A DNA stretch of 64,000 nucleotides from Escherichia coli (lineage in GTDB: Bacteria; Pseudomonadota; Gammaproteobacteria; Enterobacterales; Enterobacteriaceae), in assembly GCF_013315695.1 (NCBI RefSeq), contig NZ_CP054353.1; one strand, 5' to 3'. Below are positions 39,909 to 55,903 of the stretch, piece by piece. Below the pieces are notes generated by a model. The model had not been told where the DNA came from, ran no database searches, and worked only from the letters and a program-made list of their open reading frames with translations. The first letter of the stretch is position 1; each line of letters starts with the position of its first letter. The translations under genes and the position numbers were made by a program.

Positions 39909-39980
39909 TCTGCAATGCGTCGTGTTGTTGTCCGGTGTACGTCACAATTTTCTTAACCTGAAGTGACGAGGAACCGGAAA

Positions 39981-40715
39981 ATGTCTGACAACACCATCCC
40001 TGAATATCTGCAACCCGCGCTGGCACAACTGGAAAAGGCCAGAGCCGCCCATCTTGAGAACGCCCGCCTGATGGATGAGACCGTCACGGCCATTGAACGG
40101 GCAGAGCAGGAAAAAAATGCGCTGGCGCAGGCCGACGGAAACGACGCTGACGACTGGCGCACGGCCTTTCGTGCAGCCGGTGGTGTCCTGAGCGATGAGC
40201 TGAAACAGCGCCACATTGAGCGCGTGGCACGCCGGGAGCTGGTACAGGAATATGACAATCTGGCCGTGGTGCTGAATTTTGAACGCGAACGCCTGAAAGG
40301 GGCGTGTGACAGCACGGCCACCGCCTACCGGAAGGCACATCATCACCTTCTGAGTCTGTATGCAGAGCATGAGCTGGAACACGCCCTGAATGAAACCTGT
40401 GAGGCGCTTGTCCGGGCAATGCATCTGAGCATCCTGGTACAGGAAAATCCGCTCGCCAACACCACCGGCCATCAGGGCTACATCTCACCGGAAAAGGCTG
40501 TCATGCAGCAGGTGAAATCATCGCTGGAACAGAAAATAAAACAGATGCAAATCAGCCTCAGCGGTGAGCCGGTTCTCCGGCTGGCCGGACTGTCAGCGGC
40601 AACACTCCCGCACATGGATTATGAGGTGGCAGGCACACCGGCGCAGCGCAAGGTGTGGCAGGACAAAATAGACCAGCAGGGAGCAGAGCTGAAGGCCAGA
40701 GGACTGCTGTCATGA
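39981..40715 (+). CDS. sid: Sid-like external scaffold / capsid size determination protein
   Basis: 244-aa product from MSDNTIPEY; first gene of sid-delta-psu order. Confidence 0.7.
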   Translation: MSDNTIPEYLQPALAQLEKARAAHLENARLMDETVTAIERAEQEKNALAQADGNDADDWRTAFRAAGGVLSDELKQRHIERVARRELVQEYDNLAVVLNFERERLKGACDSTATAYRKAHHHLLSLYAEHELEHALNETCEALVRAMHLSILVQENPLANTTGHQGYISPEKAVMQQVKSSLEQKIKQMQISLSGEPVLRLAGLSAATLPHMDYEVAGTPAQRKVWQDKIDQQGAELKARGLLS

Positions 40716-41212
40716 TTTACTGCCCGTCGTGTGGACATGTTGCTCACACCCGCCGCGCACATTTCATGGACGATGGCACCAAGATAATGATTGCACAGTG
40801 CCGGAATATTTATTGCTCTGCGACATTTGAAGCGAGTGAAAGCTTTTTCTCTGACAGTAAAGATTCAGGAATGGAATACATTTCAGGCAAACAGAGATAC
40901 CGCGATTCACTGACTTCTGCCTCCGGCAGTATGAAACGCCCGAAAAGAATGCTTGTGACCGGATATTGTTGTCGGAGATGTAAAGGCCTTGCACTGTCAA
41001 GAACATCGAGGCGTCTGTCTCAGGAAGTCACCGAGCGTTTTTATGTGTGCACGGAGCCGGGTTGTGGTCTGGTGTTTAAAACGCTTCAGACCATCAACCG
41101 CTTCATTGTTCGCCCGGTCACGCCGGACGAACTGGCAGAAAGCCTGCATGAAAAACAGGAACTGCCGCCAGTACGGTTAAAAACACAATCATATTCGCTG
41201 CGTCTGGAATGA
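40712..41212 (+). CDS. Delta-like late transcription activator (two Ogr-type zinc fingers)
   Basis: 166-aa product from MIYCPSCGH; two CxxC...CxxC units (CPSCGH...CRNIYC and CRRC...CTEPGC). Confidence 0.75.
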   Translation: MIYCPSCGHVAHTRRAHFMDDGTKIMIAQCRNIYCSATFEASESFFSDSKDSGMEYISGKQRYRDSLTSASGSMKRPKRMLVTGYCCRRCKGLALSRTSRRLSQEVTERFYVCTEPGCGLVFKTLQTINRFIVRPVTPDELAESLHEKQELPPVRLKTQSYSLRLE

Positions 41213-41285
41213 GGGCTGCCGGTTAACCCCGGCCGTCGCCGCACACCGTATTTTTATTCTTCAGCATGATGAGAAAGAGATAACG

Positions 41286-41858
41286 ATGGAAAGCACAGCC
41301 TTACAGCAGGCCTTTGACACCTGTCAGAATAACAAAGCAGCATGGCTGCAACGCAAAAATGAGCTGGCTGCGGCCGAACAGGAATATCTGCGGCTTCTGT
41401 CAGGAGAAGGCAGAAACGTCAGTCGCCTGGACGAATTACGCAATATTATCGAAGTCAGAAAATGGCAGGTGAATCAGGCCGCCGGTCGTTATATTCGTTC
41501 GCATGAAGCCGTTCAGCACATCAGCATCCGCGACCGGCTGAATGATTTTATGCTGCAGCACGGCACAGCACTGGCGGCCGCACTGGCACCGGAGCTGATG
41601 GGCTACAGTGAGCTGACGGCCATTGCCCGAAACTGTGCCATACAGCGTGCCACAGATGCCCTGCGTGAAGCCCTCCTGTCCTGGCTTGCGAAGGGTGAAA
41701 AAATTAATTATTCCGCACAGGATAGCGACATTTTAACGACCATCGGATTCAGGCCTGACGCGGCTTCGGTGGATGACAGCCGTGAAAAATTCACCCCTGC
41801 GCAGAACATGATTTTTTCGCGTAAAAGTGCGCAACTGGCATCACGTCAGTCTGTGTAA
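41286..41858 (+). CDS. psu: Psu-like polarity suppression / capsid decoration protein
   Basis: 190-aa ORF following delta. Confidence 0.75.
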   Translation: MESTALQQAFDTCQNNKAAWLQRKNELAAAEQEYLRLLSGEGRNVSRLDELRNIIEVRKWQVNQAAGRYIRSHEAVQHISIRDRLNDFMLQHGTALAAALAPELMGYSELTAIARNCAIQRATDALREALLSWLAKGEKINYSAQDSDILTTIGFRPDAASVDDSREKFTPAQNMIFSRKSAQLASRQSV

Positions 41859-41892
41859 AACTCCCCGAAAATCCGCCCGTTTTACTGAAAAA

Positions 41893-41921
41893 AGCCATGC
41901 ATCGATAAGGTGCATGGCTTT
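41893..41921 (+). terminator. putative terminator hairpin after psu
   Basis: agccatgca...tgcatggct stem followed by T-containing tract. Confidence 0.4.
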
Positions 41922-42021
41922 GCATGCGTTTTCCTGCCTCATTTTCTGTAAACCGTGCCATTCCCGGCGCGGTCTGAGCGTGTCAGTACAACTGCATTAA
42001 AACCGCCCCGCAAAGCGGGCG

Positions 42022-42040
42022 GGCGAGGCGGGGAAAGCAC
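42022..42040. other. cos site 19-mer GGCGAGGCGGGGAAAGCAC (P2/P4-type cohesive end)
   Basis: exact 19-mer as remembered for P2/P4 cohesive ends; located between psu and cargo/int. Confidence 0.5.
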
Positions 42041-42074
42041 TGCGCGCAGTATAAGAATTAAATAGGTATGGATT

Positions 42075-44033
42075 TTAAAATCCATCAAGTAGCTGATTGA
42101 TACCATTGCTCTCATCACAATTTATTTGCTCTAACTCAAATAAAGCACTGTCGTACTTTATTTGGGGAGTGTTTTCAAATGACAATAAAGATTCGATTAG
42201 TCTTATTTCTTTATCTTTATTTATGTCTTTAAGTGAGTCTAAAGTTAAATTGAATTTAACTTCGGGTTGTTTTCCTACTTCCATCATGATATTTGACTCC
42301 AACTCTGGATCAGTATTGAAGAATCGATGTGTCTTATGGAAATAACTAGGTTTTCTTGATTTTAAAATACTTAGTATATCCGACTTGATAGTGCTTTCCC
42401 GTGCTATCACAAGCCAATGGTTGGCAACCCCTGTGATGGTGGTAATGATGTGGGAGCCATTTTCACTTAGTTCATTAAAGGCTCTTAAGTCACCCTTGAA
42501 AAAATCATTTAGCAACTCATTTTCTTTATCTTTATCAAAAAGGTAAATTATTGAATTGCCGGCTAATGATATTTCAGCCTTGGTTTTTATAGTATCGCAA
42601 TTAAATTGCGCGGTCTCATTTTTTAATTCTTCGTAAGATGATTTTAAGTCTAAAAGCAAGCATTTTATTATACTTGATCTGAAAGATGAGTAATCAATAT
42701 CAGCACAAAGTGAAAATAAATTTCTGTGACGAATGGATTCAGGGCTGTAATATAGCTTTGTTAATATTTCTTTTTGGCGTTCTTTTGTGTCACGACAGAT
42801 AAACATAGCTGCAAAATATTCCATTAATGATTTGTGTGACCAACGAATAATAGCGCCTTCTTTGACAAATAATGGAACGGTTTCAATTAAGTCCTGAATA
42901 AAAAGAGATGGTGAAGTTGATATTCCGGGAATTTTTGAAATGATATTTTGCAATGTTATTTGCAGATCGTCTTTCGTAAACTCAATTTTACCTCCGTCTT
43001 TCAAACACCAAAAACCTAATCTCCTTAAGACCTGATGGAAGTCAGTGGAGTCTAGCTTAGAAAATTTTTCTCTAACATAACCAAGTTCTTTAGTTAAATC
43101 ATGAGACTCATACAAAGCGTCAAATACTTGGCTATAAAATAACTCTCTTTTTCTTGGTATTATCGGTTTGAATTTATATGCACAAAATAATAATGAAACA
43201 TAAAGAGGTGTGGATAAAAATTCATTTAGATTATGACCATTCTCCAGTCGTAATCCTTTAATTAATTGAGATGAAATAGGGCCACGTCCATCATATCGAC
43301 GTAATAGATCATACGCTTGATTCGTTTCTAATGGGTTGATTTTAAATCTTGAGAAACCATGTAGTTCTGATAAGAAATTATCATGACGAGAAGTTATAAT
43401 TATTTTGCTTTCTGAGAAATTATTAGCAAAGGTACTTAGTAAATTTACGATCTTGGATTTGAGTTGTTGTGGGATTTCATCTATGCCATCGAAAAGATAA
43501 ATAAAAGGGATTTTTTTGAGGCAGTTGTCTGAAATGTCTTCTCCTAAACCAAGTTGATGTTTCACCTGTAGCGCAAAATCATAATCTTTAGCACGTCGTA
43601 ATTCAATGTATATTGGAATGTATTCCTTATTAGCGATGCAATCTAAAGCAATTCTTTTCATTAGGGTGGACTTACCCATTCCTGCTGAGTCAGTGATTAA
43701 TATATGATTGAAATTATCTAATAAATCTGCATTGTCTTTTATTAGGCATGTGTATGGTTTTTTTTCATTATCGTAATAAATGCTCATTGGCTCATAAATA
43801 TCTAGAAGCTCTACTGGAGTATTTTGAAAAGCTAAGGTATTCACAAGGGAGCATTGCCCTTTCACATTTGATAGGAAACGTTCAAGATTTTTATTCAAGA
43901 AGCGTGCTGCATGTACATCTATTAAATAATTACGAACACTACTTTCTATGATAGGTAATATTTTATTCTTAATAACCTCCTTTGCCCATGGAAGGGATGC
44001 AGAGACTAATACATCAAGAGATACTGGTTGCAT
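42075..44033 (-). CDS. NACHT-type STAND NTPase (bacterial NLR-like), candidate anti-phage protein
   Basis: 652-aa ORF; Walker A DSAGMGKST, Walker B IYLFDGIDEI, sensor-1 KIIITSR; visibly AT-rich; starts 3 nt after int stop. Confidence 0.7.
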   Translation of the reverse strand: MQPVSLDVLVSASLPWAKEVIKNKILPIIESSVRNYLIDVHAARFLNKNLERFLSNVKGQCSLVNTLAFQNTPVELLDIYEPMSIYYDNEKKPYTCLIKDNADLLDNFNHILITDSAGMGKSTLMKRIALDCIANKEYIPIYIELRRAKDYDFALQVKHQLGLGEDISDNCLKKIPFIYLFDGIDEIPQQLKSKIVNLLSTFANNFSESKIIITSRHDNFLSELHGFSRFKINPLETNQAYDLLRRYDGRGPISSQLIKGLRLENGHNLNEFLSTPLYVSLLFCAYKFKPIIPRKRELFYSQVFDALYESHDLTKELGYVREKFSKLDSTDFHQVLRRLGFWCLKDGGKIEFTKDDLQITLQNIISKIPGISTSPSLFIQDLIETVPLFVKEGAIIRWSHKSLMEYFAAMFICRDTKERQKEILTKLYYSPESIRHRNLFSLCADIDYSSFRSSIIKCLLLDLKSSYEELKNETAQFNCDTIKTKAEISLAGNSIIYLFDKDKENELLNDFFKGDLRAFNELSENGSHIITTITGVANHWLVIARESTIKSDILSILKSRKPSYFHKTHRFFNTDPELESNIMMEVGKQPEVKFNLTLDSLKDINKDKEIRLIESLLSFENTPQIKYDSALFELEQINCDESNGINQLLDGF

Positions 44034-44036
44034 GAA

Positions 44037-45245
44037 TTATACCTTATTTTCTACGTTTAAATTTTTGACCTTAAGTCCCCACCAGTTCATTAAATCGATT
44101 CTGGTATGTAAATATGTTGAGCGGTTATATGCTCTTCTAACTTCGTTTTTGTCAGAGTGCGCTAAAGCAGCTTCAATGACATCTGGGTTAAAACCTCTTT
44201 CATTCATGGCTGTACTTGCTATTGAACGTAGACCATGAGCAACCAGCTTCCCGCCATAACCAATACGTTTTAAAGCAGCATTAGCAGTTTGGCTATTCAT
44301 TGGCTGTTTTGGGTCATTTCTACTGGGAAAAACATGTTCACGATGAGCACTGATTGGTTTCATTACCTCCAGAATCTCTATTGCCTGAGGTGATAAAGGA
44401 ACAATGTGTTCCCGCTTAGCTTTCATCCGTTCGGCTGGAATAGTCCAGAGCTTTGCGTCAAGATCGATCTCTGCCCAACGAGCACCGGAAGCTTCAGAAG
44501 GGCGCACAAGGGTCAGAAGCTGCCACTCAATTAGACAGCGAGTCGAAACAGAGAGGTTCGACATCACCAAAGAGCGCATGAGTTTTGGTAATTCTTCAGG
44601 TCGTAGCGTTGGCATGTGTTGCTTTTTGGGTTTCTCAAATGCCATACCAATACCAGATGCCGGGTTTGCATCAATCAGGCCAGTGTTGACGGCGTAGATC
44701 ATGATTTCGTTAATACGCTGCACCAGTCGACGTACAGTCTCTAGCGCCCCACGTGCTTTGATTGGCTCAAGGGTTTCAACTAGTGTTCGGGCTTTGATTT
44801 GCTGGACAGGGATCTCCCCGATGACAGGGAATACGTCTTTTTCCAGTGACCGCCATATATCTTTAGCGTAATCGGGTGTAACGCTTTTGCTTTTGAGCTG
44901 GAACCAGTTAGCGGCGACCGTTGAAAAAATACTGTCCAGAGCGATTTGCTGCTGTTCCTCTGCAACTTCGGCCTGAATTTGCGGGTCAATTCCGTTGGCT
45001 AACAAAGCAAGGTAATCCGCTCTTAACCGTCGAGCATCAGCAAGTGAAAGGGCGGGGAAAGCACCAAGCCCCATCATTGTCCGCTGTTTTGTTGCTGGAC
45101 GTTGATAACGGAAACGCCACAACTTCTTACCGTTCGTTTTAACGAGCAGAAAAAGACCATCGCCATCATGTAACGTTAGATCCTTTTCTAACGCTCTAGC
45201 GCGCAGAACTTCTGTGCTGGTCAGGGGGCGTGTCGTTCTTGCCAC
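44037..45245 (-). CDS. P4-type tyrosine integrase
   Basis: 402-aa ORF; conserved R...HxxR...Y catalytic pattern near C-terminus (AHGLRSIAST, Y in RRAYNRSTY); adjacent to ssrA 3' fragment. Confidence 0.9.
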   Translation of the reverse strand: MARTTRPLTSTEVLRARALEKDLTLHDGDGLFLLVKTNGKKLWRFRYQRPATKQRTMMGLGAFPALSLADARRLRADYLALLANGIDPQIQAEVAEEQQQIALDSIFSTVAANWFQLKSKSVTPDYAKDIWRSLEKDVFPVIGEIPVQQIKARTLVETLEPIKARGALETVRRLVQRINEIMIYAVNTGLIDANPASGIGMAFEKPKKQHMPTLRPEELPKLMRSLVMSNLSVSTRCLIEWQLLTLVRPSEASGARWAEIDLDAKLWTIPAERMKAKREHIVPLSPQAIEILEVMKPISAHREHVFPSRNDPKQPMNSQTANAALKRIGYGGKLVAHGLRSIASTAMNERGFNPDVIEAALAHSDKNEVRRAYNRSTYLHTRIDLMNWWGLKVKNLNVENKV

Positions 45246-46254: not shown

Positions 46255-47271
46255 TTAAATTAAGTTATAAAGAGGGTTTTTTGTTACTGCATCCTCCAGG
46301 TGGTCTGGAGAGAAGTGTGCATAAATCATCGTCATTTTAATATCTGAGTGCCCTAAAATATCACGTAAAACGAGTATGTTCCCACCGTTCATCATAAAAT
46401 GGCTGGCAAATGTATGGCGCAGGACGTGGGTGCATTGGCCTTCCGGTAGTTCAATACCGGCCCGTTTTACCGCCCGTTCAAAGGCTTTTCTGCATGGTGT
46501 GAATAATTTCCCTCGGTTTTTGGGTAGCTCGTTGTACAGATCCTGAGATATCGGTACGGTACGGTTTTTTTTACCCTTGGTCTTTGTATAGGTAATCCGG
46601 TATTTCGATAGTTGATGGCCCTGCAGGTTTTCAGCTTCACTCCAACGAGCACCGGTTGCTAGGCATATTTTTGCAATCATTAGCAGACTGGGGCTTTGAG
46701 AATCAGCACAGGCATCCAGCAGACGTTTAATTTCCTCCGGGGTTAGGAACGCCAGTTCACCCTCCGTAATTTTAAATGTTGGAAGCCCGGCAAGCGGGTT
46801 GGGGGCTGACCAGTGGCCCAGCTTTTTCAGTGTACCAAAAACAGATGATAGGTTGCGCTGTTCAAGGTTTACCGTGCGGGGCTTAACGGGTGACATGAAC
46901 GAGCCGTCTTCATTTTGGACCTCCCCCTTTAATCTGGCTTCCCGATATTTTGTGAAATCACCTGCTGTCAGCTCAGAGGCGATGGGATCGCCTAGACCAT
47001 TACAGATAATTCTAAGTTTCGCCATCAGGCGTTTGGGGTCTGCGAGTGTTTGACCATATAGGGAATACCACTGCTCAATCACTTCTGATAATCGCCGCCG
47101 ATCTTCCTTCTCACCAAGCCATGGCTTTTTGTTTACTTCGTTCATGGTGAAGTTTTCGAATGCTATGGCTTCGCCTTTCGTGGCAAATTGCTTACGCACG
47201 CGCTTGCCATTGCGTCCATTGGGATAGCACTCACACAACCATTTTCCGTTCGGCTGTTTTCTGATGGTCAT
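46255..47271 (-). CDS. P2/186-type tyrosine integrase
   Basis: 338-aa ORF; C-terminal HVLRHTFASHFMMNGGNILVLRDILGHSDIKMTMIYAHF catalytic block. Confidence 0.85.
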   Translation of the reverse strand: MTIRKQPNGKWLCECYPNGRNGKRVRKQFATKGEAIAFENFTMNEVNKKPWLGEKEDRRRLSEVIEQWYSLYGQTLADPKRLMAKLRIICNGLGDPIASELTAGDFTKYREARLKGEVQNEDGSFMSPVKPRTVNLEQRNLSSVFGTLKKLGHWSAPNPLAGLPTFKITEGELAFLTPEEIKRLLDACADSQSPSLLMIAKICLATGARWSEAENLQGHQLSKYRITYTKTKGKKNRTVPISQDLYNELPKNRGKLFTPCRKAFERAVKRAGIELPEGQCTHVLRHTFASHFMMNGGNILVLRDILGHSDIKMTMIYAHFSPDHLEDAVTKNPLYNLI

Positions 47272-50399: not shown

Positions 50400-51253
50400 G
50401 CACCATCCTGAAATGGGCAGGTAATAAAACTGCCATTATGTCCGAACTGAAAAAACATCTTCCTGCTGGCCCGCGACTGGTTGAACCTTTCGCGGGTTCC
50501 TGTGCTGTGATGATGGAGACGGATTACCCCAGCTATCTTGTTGCGGATATTAATCCTGATTTAATCAACCTCTATAAAAAGGTTGCTGCTGATTGTGAAT
50601 CGTTTATATCTCGCGCCAGAGTTTTATTTGAGATCGCAAACAGGGAGGTGGCTTATTACAACATAAGGCAGGAGTTTAATTACTCAACTGAAATTACTGA
50701 TTTCATGAAAGCGGTATATTTCCTGTATCTAAATCGTCACGGTTACCGTGGTTTATGTCGCTATAACAAGAGCGGGCATTTCAACATTCCCTACGGTAAT
50801 TATAAAAATCCGTATTTCCCTGAAAAAGAAATTCGCGCATTTGCAGAAAAAGCCCAGCGAGCAACGTTTATCTGCGCCAGCTTTGATGAAACGCTGGCGA
50901 TGTTGAAAGCGGGGGATGTGGTGTATTGCGATCCGCCGTATGACGGTACGTTTTCCGGCTATCACACTGACGGCTTCACTGAAGATGACCAGTATCACCT
51001 GGCATCTGTTCTTGAACATCGGTCATCAGAAGGACATCCGGTCATTGTTTCTAACAGTGACACATCCCTGATCCGTTCGCTGTATCGCAATTTTACTCAC
51101 CACTACATCAAGGCAAAACGCAGCATCGGTGTGGCAGCTGGCGAGGGTAAATCAGCAACAGAAATCATTGCTGTTTCCGGGCCGCGCTGCTGGGTGGGAT
51201 TTGATTATTCGCGTGGCGTGGATAGTTCTGCCGTGTACGGAGTACGTGCATGA
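50396..51253 (+). CDS. DNA adenine methyltransferase (Dam-like, phage-encoded)
   Basis: product from [11 protein letters not shown]; catalytic DPPY motif in [10 protein letters not shown]. Confidence 0.8.
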
Positions 51254-53664
51254 GTCATGCCGATATGAACAACTGCTGCGGCTTTAACGAAGCTGCCGCA
51301 TCGTTCTCATGGAACAGCCCGAAAAAGGCCATTAACCCTTATCTGGACCCGGCGGAAGTTGCGCCGGTTTCTACGCTTTCAAACCTGATCACTCTGTACG
51401 CTGCCGATAACGAGCAGGAACAGCTGCGCCGTGAGGCGCTGAGTGATCAGGTCTGGGAGCGTTATTTCTTTAATGAATCCCGTGATCCTGTCCAGCGCGA
51501 AATGGAGCAGGATAAGCTCATTAGTCGGGCAAAGCTGGCGCATGAGCAGCAGCGTTTTAACCCGGACATGGTCATTCTGGCAGACGTCAGCGCCCAGCCC
51601 TCCCATATCAGCAAGCCGCTGATGCAACGTATTGAATACTTCAGCAGCCTTGGCAGGCCAAAGGCTTATTCCCGCTATTTGCGTGAGACGATTAAGCCAT
51701 GTCTGGAACGGCTGGAGCATGTACGCGACAGTCAGCTATCCACATCTTTTCGCTTTATGGCAAGCCATGAAGGGCTGGACGGCCTGCTGATTCTGCCTGA
51801 AATGAGTCAGGATCAGGTGAAACGCCTGTCCACCCTTGTTGCTGCGCATATGAGCATGTGCCTTGATGCAGCTTGTGGCGATTTGTATGCCACCGATGAC
51901 GTTAAGCCAGAAGAAATCCGCAAGACATGGGAAAAGGTGGCAGCAGAAACCCTGCGACTGGATGTCATACCGCCTGCGTTTGAGCAACTCCGCCGGAAAA
52001 GAAACCGCCGTAAACCCGTGCCATATGAACTCATTCCGGGTTCGCTGGCGCGTATGTTGTGCGCCGATTGGTGGTACCGGAAATTATGGAAGATGCGTTG
52101 CGAATGGCGGGAAGAGCAGTTGCGTGCTGTTTGCCTGGTCAGCAAAAAAGCATCTCCCTATGTCAGCTATGAAGCCGTGATGCATAAACGTGAGCAGCGC
52201 CGTAAGTCGCTGGAGTTTTTCCGTTCTCATGAACTGGTGAACGAAGACGGCGACACGCTGGACATGGAGGATGTGGTAAACGCCAGCAGCAGCAACCCTG
52301 CGCATCGCCGCAATGAGATGATGGCCTGTGTTAAAGGTCTGGAGCTTATCGCGGAAATGCGCGGTGACTGCGCCGTTTTCTACACCATCACCTGTCCGTC
52401 ACGTTTCCATTCCACGCTAAATAACGGCAGGCCCAACCCGACCTGGACAAATACGACGGTAAGACAAAGCAGTGATTATCTGGTCGGCATGTTTGCTGCA
52501 TTTCGTAAGGCGATGCACAAAGCCGGATTGCGCTGGTATGGCGTGCGGGTGGCTGAGCCGCATCATGACGGTACAGTTCACTGGCACCTGTTGTGTTTTA
52601 TGCGCAAAAAAGATCGCCGCACCATTACTGCTTTGTTGCGTAAGTTTGCCATTCGTGAAGACCGCGAGGAGCTGGGTAATAACACGGGACCACGCTTTAA
52701 GTCTGAGCTGATAAACCCGCGCAAAGGTACGCCAACAAGCTACATCGCGAAATACATCAGTAAGAACATTGACGGGCGTGGTCTGGCTGGCGAGATCAGC
52801 AAGGAAACGGGTAAATCCCTGCGTGATAACGCTGAATACGTTAATGCCTGGGCGTCTCTGCATCGTGTTCAGCAATTCCGCTTCTTTGGCATTCCGGGGC
52901 GTCAGGCTTACCGTGAACTGCGATTGCTGGCTGGTCAGGCGGCAAGGCAACAGGGGGACAAAAAAGCAGGTGCGCCGGTACTGGATAACCCGCGCCTTGA
53001 TGCAATCCTGGCTGCTGCTGATGCTGGTTGTTTTGCCACCTACATCATGAAGCAGGGCGGCGTACTGGTTCCCCGCAAATATCACCTCATCAGAACTGCT
53101 TATGAAATCAACGAAGAACCGACCGCATATGGCGATCACGGTATTCGTATTTATGGCATCTGGTCACCCATTGCAGAGGGCAAGATCTGCACTCATGCGG
53201 TGAAGTGGAAAATGGTTCGTAAGGCCGTTGACGTTCAGGAGGCGGCAGCCGACCAGGGCGCTTGCGCCCCTTGGACTCGTGGCAATAACTGTCCCCTTGC
53301 TGAAAATTTGTACCAACAAGGGAAAGACAAATCAGCTGATGGAGATACCAGAACGGATATCACCCGCATGGATGACAAGGAGTTGCACGATTACCTGCAC
53401 AGTATGAGCAAAAAAGAGCGCCGGGAACTGGCAGCAAGGTTACGCCTGGTGAAACCGAAACGGCGTAAAGACTACAAACAGCGAATTACAGATCATCAGC
53501 GACAGCAGCTCGTGTATGAACTGAAGTCCAGGGGATTTGATGGCAGCGAGAAAGAGGTCGATTTACTGCTTCGCGGCGGCAGTATTCCGTCAGGAGCAGG
53601 CCTGCGTATCTTCTATCGGAACCAGCGTTTGCAGGAAGATGATAAGTGGCGAAACCTGTATTAA
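51250..53664 (+). CDS. replication initiation endonuclease (P2 gpA-like, rolling-circle)
   Basis: 804-aa ORF; HxH metal motif (VHWHLL) and tyrosine motif YIAKYISK. Confidence 0.8.
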
Positions 53665-53816
53665 TTACGCGGGTTAACAATTCGTGCTCTTAATAATACC
53701 AGGCATATCAGGCCGATGAACGTAAAAAAACGTTTTACATCAGTAAGATTATTATATACTGTAAATATAAACAGTAGTTATTTATACAGTATTTCTTTGG
53801 TGTTATAGGAGGAAAG

Positions 53817-54005
53817 ATGCAGGACTATTTTTTGGAGTCTTTGAAGCTCCAGCGCATTGATTTTTTTCTTAAGCTTGTAGCGGCTAGTGAGTGTAGTGAT
53901 GAAGAGAAGGGGCTGGCTTTGCAGTGGGTTTCTGAACTGACAGATGAACTTATGGCAAAAATCAGAACCCACGAATACAACCGCTCAATGGATGTCATCA
54001 GTTGA
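53817..54005 (+). CDS. hypothetical small protein
   Basis: 62-aa ORF upstream of DinI-like gene. Confidence 0.3.
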   Translation: MQDYFLESLKLQRIDFFLKLVAASECSDEEKGLALQWVSELTDELMAKIRTHEYNRSMDVIS

Positions 54006-54015
54006 GGTGACTTTT

Positions 54016-54249
54016 ATGCGCATTGAAATAATGATCGATAAAGAGCAGAAGATTAGCCAGTCTACCCTGGACGCCTTTGAATCCGAGCTTTACCGCAATC
54101 TGCGCCCCCTGTATCCCAAAACGGTAATTCGTATCCGTAAAGGTAGCTCTAACGGTGTGGAACTGACCGGACTGCAACTGGACGAAGAAAGGAAACAAGT
54201 AATGAAAATTATGCAGAAGGTGTGGGAAGACGACAGCTGGCTGCATTAA
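54016..54249 (+). CDS. DinI-family protein
   Basis: 77-aa product MRIEIMIDKEQ...VWEDDSWL resembles DinI (MRIEV...WESADDWF). Confidence 0.6.
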   Translation: MRIEIMIDKEQKISQSTLDAFESELYRNLRPLYPKTVIRIRKGSSNGVELTGLQLDEERKQVMKIMQKVWEDDSWLH

Positions 54250-54519
54250 GAAACGTTGCTGGCGTCTGAACTTGCTTCTGGCGTCAGCAAGGTTGAACAA
54301 CGAGCTATGCGAGGCGTTAGTGTCAATTTGTTACCTTAACCACTATATATGCCAGGAAATTAACAGTTCTTAAGAAACCGCTTGCATGATCGAGCGCATT
54401 GAACTTAAGTTTAAGTAACGAAATCAACAGATGATATTGTTGTCTAAATTTTAAAGATAATCTGTTGAGGTTGTAGGCGTCGGAGTGTAGACTTCCGCGC
54501 CATGTGAAAAGGGGGAGTT

Positions 54520-54735
54520 ATGTCAAGCATCGCCGCATTTAGCCTGGGTAACCCAGTTGAACGTCTGGCAAGGGTTCTTAAAGAGAACCAGGACAAACTC
54601 AATCTTAGTAAAGATGGTTTTGTGTCCGTAGACTTGTCTAACAAAAGAGCAATGGATGCCATCAAGGCACAGATGGATAAGCTTGAAGGCATCAAAACGA
54701 GCACTGTAAAAGAGAAAACTAATAGAACCAGATAA
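54520..54735 (+). CDS. hypothetical small protein, translationally coupled to next gene
   Basis: 71-aa ORF; TAATG stop/start overlap with 280-aa gene. Confidence 0.4.
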   Translation: MSSIAAFSLGNPVERLARVLKENQDKLNLSKDGFVSVDLSNKRAMDAIKAQMDKLEGIKTSTVKEKTNRTR

Positions 54736-55577
54736 TGGCAACATTACTTTTAGCAGTGATTTTGGTTAGTGGTTTTATTTATGTAAACCTATCACTTTCA
54801 ACAAGATACCGATATAAGCGTTCCAACGGCTGGGACGCTTATTTTTTTGTGGCTGCCTGGGGTATCGTTTTTTTTCTCCTTGGCGGTTTTTTCACCTTTA
54901 TTTTGAACGTCAGCGGAGGGTTTCGTTGGCTGGCTAATGCCTTGAATCTAACACCTGACAGTTTTAACGGCATGTTGTCTTCATCGAAAGACAAACTTCA
55001 AAGAATAAATGAAATCAAACAGATAGCATGGGTTATGATTTCAATTGTCCTCGCTGCGATTTCAGGTTTTGGAAATAAGTTACGCACATCACGTGGAGAT
55101 CGTCGCTGGGATGCCTTAGCTAAAGCTGTGGGTAATAACGCTTTCGAATCATTACTCATGGAAGCGTCCGCAAGACAGTTTCCGATCATAGCAACTCTGT
55201 CGTCTCGCAAAATCTATGTTGGTCTTGTTACTTGTCCGGCGTTAGAAAACGGGCTTTCAGAACACCTTGAACTTCTCCCGATGTTAAGCGGATATAGGGA
55301 TAAAGATGATCTAACGATTAGTATCACGACTAACTATCACCAACATTATCTTGATAGTGGTGTGATAAGTGGAATGTCTCGGCTTAATATCGAAGATTTC
55401 CGTGTGCTCATACCAAAAGATGAGGTTGAAACAATTTCGTTTTTTGATACTGAGACATATAACAAATTTAAAGAAAATGAAGCCAGGGATAGAAAGAACT
55501 GTCGAAAGATTGGTAGTAAAAGTGCATCTTCGCGCAGCAAGCGTGCAGCAGATGCTGAGTCAAATGATCGTGCATGA
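54735..55577 (+). CDS. hypothetical membrane protein (about 3 N-terminal TM helices plus soluble C-terminal domain), prophage cargo
   Basis: 280-aa AT-rich ORF at tin/old position after gpA. Confidence 0.5.
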   Translation: MATLLLAVILVSGFIYVNLSLSTRYRYKRSNGWDAYFFVAAWGIVFFLLGGFFTFILNVSGGFRWLANALNLTPDSFNGMLSSSKDKLQRINEIKQIAWVMISIVLAAISGFGNKLRTSRGDRRWDALAKAVGNNAFESLLMEASARQFPIIATLSSRKIYVGLVTCPALENGLSEHLELLPMLSGYRDKDDLTISITTNYHQHYLDSGVISGMSRLNIEDFRVLIPKDEVETISFFDTETYNKFKENEARDRKNCRKIGSKSASSRSKRAADAESNDRA

Positions 55578-55625
55578 CTATGCTGCATGAGATCGCATGA
55601 TCGTTTGAGGATCGTTTTTGCTAAG

Positions 55626-55649
55626 GCCCGCCAGAACTGGCGGGCTTTT
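55626..55649 (+). terminator. rho-independent terminator after 280-aa gene
   Basis: gcccgcca-gaac-tggcgggc hairpin followed by TTTT. Confidence 0.55.
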
Positions 55650-55694
55650 GCGTAGATCATGCACCTGCATGAAAACTACTACATAAAGCGGGCA

Positions 55695-55713
55695 GGCGTG
55701 GCGGGGATACGAG
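55695..55713. other. cos-like site of the P2-like prophage (GGCGTGGCGGGGATACGAG)
   Basis: 14/19 identity with satellite cos 19-mer; upstream of portal gene region. Confidence 0.35.
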
Positions 55714-55903
55714 CGCGCGTTGGGATGATAATGTCCTTTCGAATGTAAGGCAGAGTATGTTATTTTTACTCTTGGTTGCTTTGTATAGTTCGATAAAATT
55801 ATTATATATTTAGTATGTGATATATTGATGTCGATGGTGACTGGTTGTGGATGAAGCTAAAAACAAAAAGGCATGATGCGATTTATTGAAGGAATGATGA
55901 TTA

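Follow-up and report, generated by a model that had tools for sequence, protein, structure and literature searches.

A translationally coupled small-protein and membrane-protein gene pair beside the cos site of a P2-like Escherichia coli prophage is a candidate anti-phage module

What is the function of the two overlapping genes that fill the accessory position next to the cos site of a P2-like prophage in Escherichia coli? The genes lie in a stretch of 64,000 nucleotides (nt) of contig NZ_CP054353.1 (termed here the window; all coordinates are window positions) and encode a protein of 71 amino acids (aa; 54520..54735, + strand) and an inner-membrane protein of 280 aa (54735..55577, + strand), referred to below as the small and large proteins, respectively. 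Both proteins fall in PHROGs without assigned function (phrog_9843 and phrog_3630, respectively). We find that the pair is an autonomous, horizontally mobile two-gene cassette and a credible candidate anti-phage module. The defensive reading is based on (i) the location of the pair in a validated hotspot of anti-phage genes; (ii) a published machine-learning (ML) prediction for the exact large protein; and (iii) the patchy distribution of the pair on mobile elements.

Conservation and coupling of the gene pair

The two open reading frames (ORFs) were examined for evidence that they are genuine genes and function as a unit. Each begins with ATG, and the stop codon of the small gene overlaps the start codon of the large gene in the sequence TAATG. 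A purine-rich run resembling a Shine-Dalgarno (SD) sequence precedes the small gene (54510-54517), and no SD was found for the large gene before position 54735. A preliminary description of this DNA had reported both ORFs and their overlap, and the same two coding sequences are annotated by RefSeq as WP_000094764.1 (small) and WP_000212611.1 (large) in an E. coli locus of 99.9% identity. The pair was kept in all eight of the first genomic contexts inspected, with an upstream ORF of 51-72 aa and small proteins that could be aligned. A profile of the small protein was then run against 7,457 ORFs of 30-130 aa, derived from all six frames of 79 loci, which came from scanning representative genomes and stand for one species each. 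A homologue was detected in 75 of the 79 loci, once in each, on the same strand and directly upstream of the large gene, and none was found elsewhere among the ORFs of these loci. Among the four loci without a match were two (L085 and L089) in which the alignment covered only the C-terminal part of the query and one (L081) with an unscored ORF of like pattern. The two genes overlap (−13, −4 or −1 nt) in 25 of the 75 loci and are 0-12 nt apart in 33 more; with abutting genes (0 nt) grouped with the overlaps, two sets of 29 loci result, with junctions of −13 to 0 nt and of 1-12 nt, respectively. The overlapping stop and start codons, the lack of an SD before the large gene and the short junctions kept across homologues are those of a translationally coupled operon, as had been proposed. 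The small ORF displayed a ratio of nonsynonymous to synonymous substitution rates (dN/dS) of 0.17-0.22 when compared with five homologues of unsaturated dS (median 0.17 over 17 pairs), a level indicative of purifying selection. The conservation of the small ORF, on which the preliminary description depended, is thus upheld by selection as well as by synteny, and comparative sequence analysis identifies both ORFs as real genes that are conserved as a pair.

A mobile cassette in an anti-phage hotspot

The pair is located between gpA and a DinI-like gene on one side and a terminator and cos on the other. This region corresponds to the tin/old (gpA-cos) cargo position of P2-like phages, situated between gpA and the portal gene gpQ next to cos and variable among related phages. 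The placement had been described correctly, save for an intervening 62-aa ORF that had gone unmentioned. The gpA-gpQ interval next to cos is an experimentally validated anti-phage hotspot (Rousset et al. 2022, PMC9122126). In Table S5A of the same study, WP_000094764 and WP_000212611 are found in loci with PIN_12, DUF262/DUF1524 or SieB genes; the pair is absent from the cloned systems as far as the text of Table S2 shows. In addition, DefensePredictor (DeWeirdt et al., Science 2026, PMC13092281) classified WP_000212611.1 as a 'Predicted novel defense gene' with a mean log-odds of 5.10 against a cutoff of 4. In that work 94 units were tested and 45% were validated, and WP_000212611.1 is missing from the tables of tested units. 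The candidate defence status of the large protein is, in this form, already public in a supplementary table.

The distribution of the pair was found to be broad and patchy. It is carried by 51 of 5,426 complete E. coli genomes, and its range covers Proteobacteria, a Nostoc locus and an Acidobacteriia metagenome-assembled genome being outliers. Fourteen of the 79 loci are in the gpA-Q intervals of diverse P2-like phages (Peduoviridae; gpA identity 29 to 84%), in some of which the pair is the sole cargo. Lambda-like tail gene clusters harbor the pair in two Pasteurellaceae loci of the 79 and in the K-I moron of Enterobacter hormaechei, and in Salmonella phages SEN4 and SEN5 it is positioned at the genome end. 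A relative at 23% identity is present in 25 Salmonella plasmid records, and 19 of 31 plasmid matches overall were to conjugative plasmids; in the one IncC plasmid inspected, the relative is situated between a RecD-like helicase and an orphan methylase. One metagenomic relative abuts a type I restriction-modification operon (hsdRMS), and other copies form lone islets amid metabolic genes, one of them adjoining a transposase.

The preliminary description had further proposed that the pair is AT-rich and separate from a TIR cassette that lies beyond cos (55904-56923). The GC fraction of the pair, 0.40-0.42 (about 0.41), is below the 0.53 of gpA and above the 0.34 of the TIR cassette; the two cargo units are divided by cos, and the same pair occurs with other second cargo or with none. 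The second cargo beside the pair in other P2-like phages was found to be a SEFIR, PIN_12, DUF262/DUF1524 or SieB gene, or to be absent; for example, Klebsiella phage ST15-OXA48phi14.1 carries the pair at 80% nucleotide identity, with a SEFIR protein beyond cos in place of the TIR cassette. Both proposals therefore stand, and the cassette is independent of the TIR genes.

Predicted structure of the two proteins

The large protein had been described as having three N-terminal transmembrane (TM) helices and an uncharacterised soluble C-terminal domain. Hydrophobic segments centred at residues 10-14, 43-54 and 103 were found to coincide with helices 2-19, 33-60 and 87-119 of an AlphaFold2 (AF2) model (mean predicted local distance difference test score, pLDDT, of 78), in agreement with three TM helices (codons for residues 2-113; 54738..55073, + strand). 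These are followed in the model by two short helices, a β-barrel (residues 151-236) and a C-terminal helix. The charges are +4/−1 in loop 1 (RYRYKRS), +5/−3 in loop 2 (37 residues) and +6/−2 in the segment after TM3 (KLRTSRGDRR). The topology is predicted to be N-out and C-in, which would therefore place the soluble domain in the cytoplasm. An exhaustive phmmer search collected 1,632 cluster representatives of the large-protein family at E ≤ 1e-3, nearly all of 240-300 aa. Conserved residues were identified in loop 1 and the start of TM2 (R29, G32, Y36 and G43) and in the barrel (K159, Y161, G163, P182, S185-D191, Y201, Y205, F222, F237 and Y242), where the invariant motifs are RKxYVG, P..SGYRDKD, NY..HY, DFR and SFFD..Y. 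Loop 2, predicted to be periplasmic, is variable among homologues.

The soluble domain (codons for residues 136-250; 55140..55484, + strand) displays in the predicted structure the N-terminal helix and five-stranded, strongly bent β-barrel of the Sm/LSm/Hfq fold. Neither Sm1/Sm2 motifs nor family-level similarity to Sm or Hfq was detected (Pfam LSM/Hfq; sequence profile search of the PDB). The domain further differs from Sm/LSm/Hfq proteins in that it is membrane-anchored and in that its SGYRDKD motif is in the β3-β4 turn rather than in the canonical Sm loop 3/loop 5 pocket. With regard to family, published HHpred analysis of this exact protein (PMC13092281, Table S5) matched DUF6338 at 94.3% over residues 131-240. 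We found that three of 70 distant homologues match the Pfam DUF6338 model (PF19865) at E ≤ 1e-3 (best 6.3e-5), with the window protein itself below every Pfam threshold; the match supports a superfamily relative rather than a model-level member. Because of these two results, we assign the large protein as a probable remote branch of the DUF6338 superfamily, whose members likewise have an N-terminal TM region and a C-terminal β-rich domain, and the structural model identifies the soluble domain as an Sm/LSm-like barrel of that superfamily. The domain that the earlier account called uncharacterised can now be recognised. The link names a superfamily and not a mechanism, and a conserved small partner is undescribed for DUF6338. 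An E. coli DUF6338 protein is likewise an ML-predicted defence gene (PMC13092281). Cronobacter phage phiES15 and the Pseudomonas phages vB_Pae_U5 and U6 were also observed to carry, close to the ends of their genomes, versions of about 115-145 aa that consist of the Sm-like C-terminal domain only, with no TM region (phrog_23864; JQ780327, 218-610; PP003917, 421-765; PP003918, 42792-43136).

The small protein is hydrophilic, as for a soluble protein. Its predicted fold is a helix, a β-hairpin and a second helix (pLDDT about 85), with a near-invariant glycine (Gly33) in the hairpin. This prediction was derived from a fusion model, in which the small protein was joined to the large protein through a (GGGGS)6 linker and which was built on 29 paired sequences. 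Pfam and PDB-sequence profile searches returned no significant match and no match to a DNA-binding fold. No natural fusion of the small protein to other domains was detected; it was always free-standing, at 49-77 aa. It defines a new small-protein family (phrog_9843). Entries for this family in NCBI and UniRef widely bear the mistaken label 'multidrug ABC transporter ATPase', and no ABC or ATPase similarity and no Pfam match were found for them. Comparison of the fusion model with that of the large protein alone revealed a gain in pLDDT of 8-22 points in two parts of the large protein, loop 1 and residues 111-150. This gain is a hint of docking by the small protein at the juxtamembrane cytoplasmic surface of its partner. 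A diverged subfamily (loci L070-L093; Pseudomonas oryzihabitans group, Paraglaciecola, Asticcacaulis and Nostoc) has HRYEGQYLYL in loop 1 of the large protein and, in the small protein, RVVGRGT(L/V)RIDP in place of SKDGFVSVDL; the helix-hairpin-helix layout and the near-invariant glycine are kept.

Transcription signals and neighbouring genes

The regions flanking the pair were examined for signals that may govern its expression. Upstream are gpA, the replication gene (51250-53664), the 62-aa ORF (53817-54005, + strand; phrog_698) and the DinI-like gene (54016-54249, + strand). The latter two genes are missing from many pair-bearing loci and are therefore regarded as semi-core neighbours outside the cassette. 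A perfect LexA box, CTGTAAATATAAACAG (53759..53774, + strand), was identified between gpA and the unit formed by these two genes, and a check of 16 P2-like or derived loci revealed similar boxes in 8 of them, located 300-790 nt upstream of the small and large genes. A consensus scan predicted no terminator between the DinI-like gene and the pair. Given the perfect LexA box and the lack of a predicted terminator, SOS-driven read-through from the LexA-controlled dinI unit into the pair is possible.

Closer to the small gene, a leader (54342..54416, + strand) was found to include the invariant motif ACTATATATGC (54342-54352) and the palindrome ACTTAAGTTTAAGT (54403-54416). Alignment revealed that the motif and palindrome are kept in six genera and that the sequence farther upstream is not; the leader marks the cassette boundary and may serve as a promoter or operator. 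No promoter was detected in the 54250-54520 region by a sigma-70 consensus scan, and none could be assigned by eye. An Rfam scan of 53600-56000 returned no family, apart from one chance microRNA match. Downstream, the unit is closed by a GC-rich hairpin (55619..55652, + strand) that is predicted to act as an intrinsic terminator (free energy −27.9 kcal/mol, z −4.8) and whose stability was reached by none of 200 shuffled sequences. The T-run of this hairpin is only 4 T, which is why a consensus terminator scanner missed it. The strong terminator noted earlier just ahead of cos is thereby located. The cos core, GGCGTGGCGGGG (55695..55706, core to 55713, no strand assigned), separates the pair from the TIR cassette and lies in a block common to many P2-like phages irrespective of cargo; the site is assigned as cos by the P2/186 consensus.

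Relationship to known families and systems

The two proteins were compared with known protein families and defence systems. Neither was matched by NCBIfam or Pfam, and no known toxin-antitoxin (TA) family was found. PADLOC-DB v2, which includes Old, Tin, Abi, PD-T4/T7/lambda and PDC candidates, returned no family for the small protein and one chance match (E 0.14) for the large protein. A PDB sequence profile search with the large protein gave only YaeO as its best match (E 0.27), and Foldseek retrieved only uncharacterised proteins from AFDB50 and was uninformative against BFVD. A match of the large protein to a housekeeping or structural phage family had been named as grounds for rejecting the preliminary description, and no such match was obtained (PADLOC, PHROG, NCBIfam and Pfam). 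Searches of the literature with the accessions, the PHROG identifiers and 'Sm-like' combined with anti-phage terms returned nothing. Overall, the literature searched holds no functional description of the two families, of the Sm-like membrane architecture or of the obligate small partner; the general kind is already known, in that phage defence hotspots hold small accessory cassettes that encode a membrane protein.

Likeness to described systems was found in location, topology or concept. The pair shares its site beside cos with P2 tin/old and other gpA-Q cargo, a locus type shown to hold defence systems, but neither Old, Tin nor the other PADLOC models showed homology to it. In MscS, a heptameric ring is built by a cytoplasmic Sm-like β domain that comes after three TM helices, and the large protein is predicted to have a similar order of these parts. 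Membership among MscS-like channels was rejected, as no MS_channel domains and no pore-lining TM3 joined directly to the β domain were found. In concept, the pair is also comparable to lambda RexAB, the TM effectors of cyclic oligonucleotide-based antiphage signaling systems (CBASS), Pycsar and retrons, and Hailong, in which a soluble, prophage-borne partner is combined with a membrane protein that collapses membrane function. In Hailong, the membrane effector is restrained by a cytoplasmic ligand. The pair differs from all of these in showing no sequence or fold kinship and in having a soluble partner of 50-80 aa that has no enzymatic domain. Hailong is mentioned in a preprint (10.64898/2026.02.27.708500). 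The 2TM+1TM+TIR system of phage AC1 (Rst_2TM_1TM_TIR) is P2-like hotspot cargo of TM and TIR proteins and as such resembles the neighbouring 55904-56923 cassette and not the pair. The AC1 TIR protein is TM-less and begins MKIFISWSG (Table S2, PMC9122126), whereas that of the window is a 200-aa TM-TIR protein. A single AC1-like system made up of the pair and the TIR cassette was rejected on the basis of the intervening cos, the different GC fractions, the varying partners and the differences from the AC1 proteins.

Proposed function and alternative explanations

We tentatively propose, as a reading that is quite possible and short of established, that the pair is an abortive-infection-type phage-exclusion module with a membrane effector, a small regulator and activation by a phage cue or ligand. 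The large protein would be the effector, which probably oligomerises into a ring through its Sm-like domain and, once activated, would disturb the integrity or energisation of the membrane. The small protein would act as a stoichiometric regulator (an inhibitor or sensor), held at a fixed ratio by translational coupling and bound to the juxtamembrane region and the Sm-like domain. A cue from the infecting phage would lift this control and halt the infection; candidate cues include (i) a change in the small protein, which could be lost, titrated or modified; and (ii) a nucleic-acid or nucleotide ligand, which would be bound by the aromatic- and basic-rich pocket of the Sm-like domain. In this prophage, SOS read-through from the LexA-controlled dinI unit may also raise expression. 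A wider version, in which the pair represents a widespread, undescribed two-component membrane immunity system whose DUF6338-superfamily Sm-like ring senses phage nucleic acid, a nucleotide or loss of the small partner and opens or disrupts the inner membrane, is considered rather doubtful.

Several findings weigh against an abortive-infection function. No PADLOC homology was detected for close members or for ten distant homologues, the neighbours of distant homologues are mostly non-defence genes, and the literature searched contains no experiment on the family of the pair. In addition, an Sm-like fold by itself implies neither RNA binding nor a pore, and the contact between the two proteins is hinted at only by pLDDT changes between models that were built on different alignments. 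The large gene was found to be broken by frameshifts or stops, with the small ORF intact, in seven of the 79 loci (L027, L029, L032, L053, L057, L064 and L069), two of which are Symbiopectobacterium genomes and some of which may reflect draft-sequence errors. The broken genes fit a costly effector weakly, and the count is biased in that the large gene is an approximately 4-fold larger mutational target and detection needed an intact small ORF.

Other functions for the pair were also weighed. The broken large genes next to intact small genes also fit an addiction or TA-like module, in which a membrane toxin and its small antidote stabilise prophages, plasmids and islets with no direct anti-phage role. 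The strict two-gene layout with the small gene first, the translational coupling, the occurrence on conjugative plasmids and the isolated islets, of which one adjoins a transposase, are consistent with this idea; however, no known TA family was matched, the small protein has no DNA-binding fold match of the kind that would suggest autoregulation, and many TA modules in hotspots prove to be defensive, such that the idea overlaps with abortive infection. We regard a purely stabilising module as improbable. Exclusion of superinfecting phages at the envelope is similarly unlikely, and would have the inner-membrane protein block genome entry (like P22 SieA, T4 Imm and HK97 gp15) with the small protein as an assembly partner. 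HK97 gp15 sits among lambda-like tail-gene morons. In favor of this function, the large protein is a membrane protein encoded at prophage accessory sites, including lambda-like tail morons and the P2 tin/old position (PMC9122126). Yet its conserved residues are predicted to be cytoplasmic (loop 1 and the Sm-like domain), with the periplasmic loop 2 variable; plasmids and non-phage islets of Proteobacteria and a Nostoc locus also harbor the pair, whereas known superinfection exclusion proteins are usually phage-specific; and a strictly conserved cytoplasmic partner is atypical for such proteins.

A phage life-cycle role tied to the SOS response or to prophage induction, for example an effect on the timing of lysis, on the state of the membrane or on host physiology, with the pair transcribed together with the LexA-controlled dinI unit, appears very improbable. 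The perfect LexA box, the lack of a predicted terminator from dinI to the pair, the boxes in half of the related loci (8/16) and the retention of DinI and the pair as a trio in Pectobacterium are in keeping with such a role. Class I holins have three TM helices, an N-out/C-in topology and a charged C-terminal tail, and the predicted topology and charged tail of the large protein recall these proteins. By contrast, only a minority of P2-like phages carry the pair, as reflected by the 51 E. coli genomes, and it is swapped with unrelated cargo; it has a conserved leader of its own; and copies of it are found that lack DinI, that lack a LexA box or that lie outside phages. Assignment as a holin was set aside, as P2-type lysis genes are located elsewhere in such phages, the protein is far larger and the resemblance is topological only. 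The last alternative, to which we also give a low probability, is a non-defensive membrane function of the DUF6338 superfamily (stress response, transport or signalling) that is carried as a moron. The large size of the family, the several chromosomal copies amid metabolic or transport genes and a report of DUF6338 in biosynthetic gene clusters (PMC10433244, a proteomics paper on other matters) are compatible with this function, but the patchy mobile distribution, low GC, hotspot siting and ML defence prediction argue against it.

Other elements of the window

Two further regions of the window were noted. The TIR cassette beyond cos encodes a 138-aa multi-TM protein in addition to the TM-TIR protein; PADLOC matched the TIR protein to generic TIR models only (best PDLC02012, 5e-11) and the 138-aa protein to none, and no complete known system was detected. 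A second, exact P2/P4-type cos, GGCGAGGCGGGGAAAGCAC, is present at 42022-42040, within a region (39963-45245) that includes P4-like satellite genes flanking the site (sid/psu-like, 39963-40715; delta-like regulator, 40655-41212; psu, 41286-41858). Beyond this cos are an unannotated cargo ORF of 651 aa (42075-44033, minus strand; phrog_18297), for which no PADLOC match was found, and an integrase of 401 aa (44037-45245, minus strand); position 46255 is the start of the P2-like integrase. From this arrangement, we conclude that a P4-like satellite and a potential helper prophage lie in tandem in the window and that the P4 defence hotspot holds an uncharacterised protein.

Implications

Should the pair not protect against phages, it would be an ordinary moron. 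If it is protective, it would represent a compact two-gene system of about 1.2 kb with a fold new to defence, a membrane-tethered Sm-like barrel, and would provide the first function for the DUF6338 superfamily, whose sequence clusters at 50% identity number over 1,600. Its partner of 50-80 aa, of a size often missed or mislabelled by gene callers and annotators, would then be an obligate component, and if the membrane immunity reading were true, a sensor with an Sm fold would have a role in defence for the first time. As the pair is found in P2-like hotspots, lambda-like tail morons and IncC plasmids, a result on one element would be informative for many.

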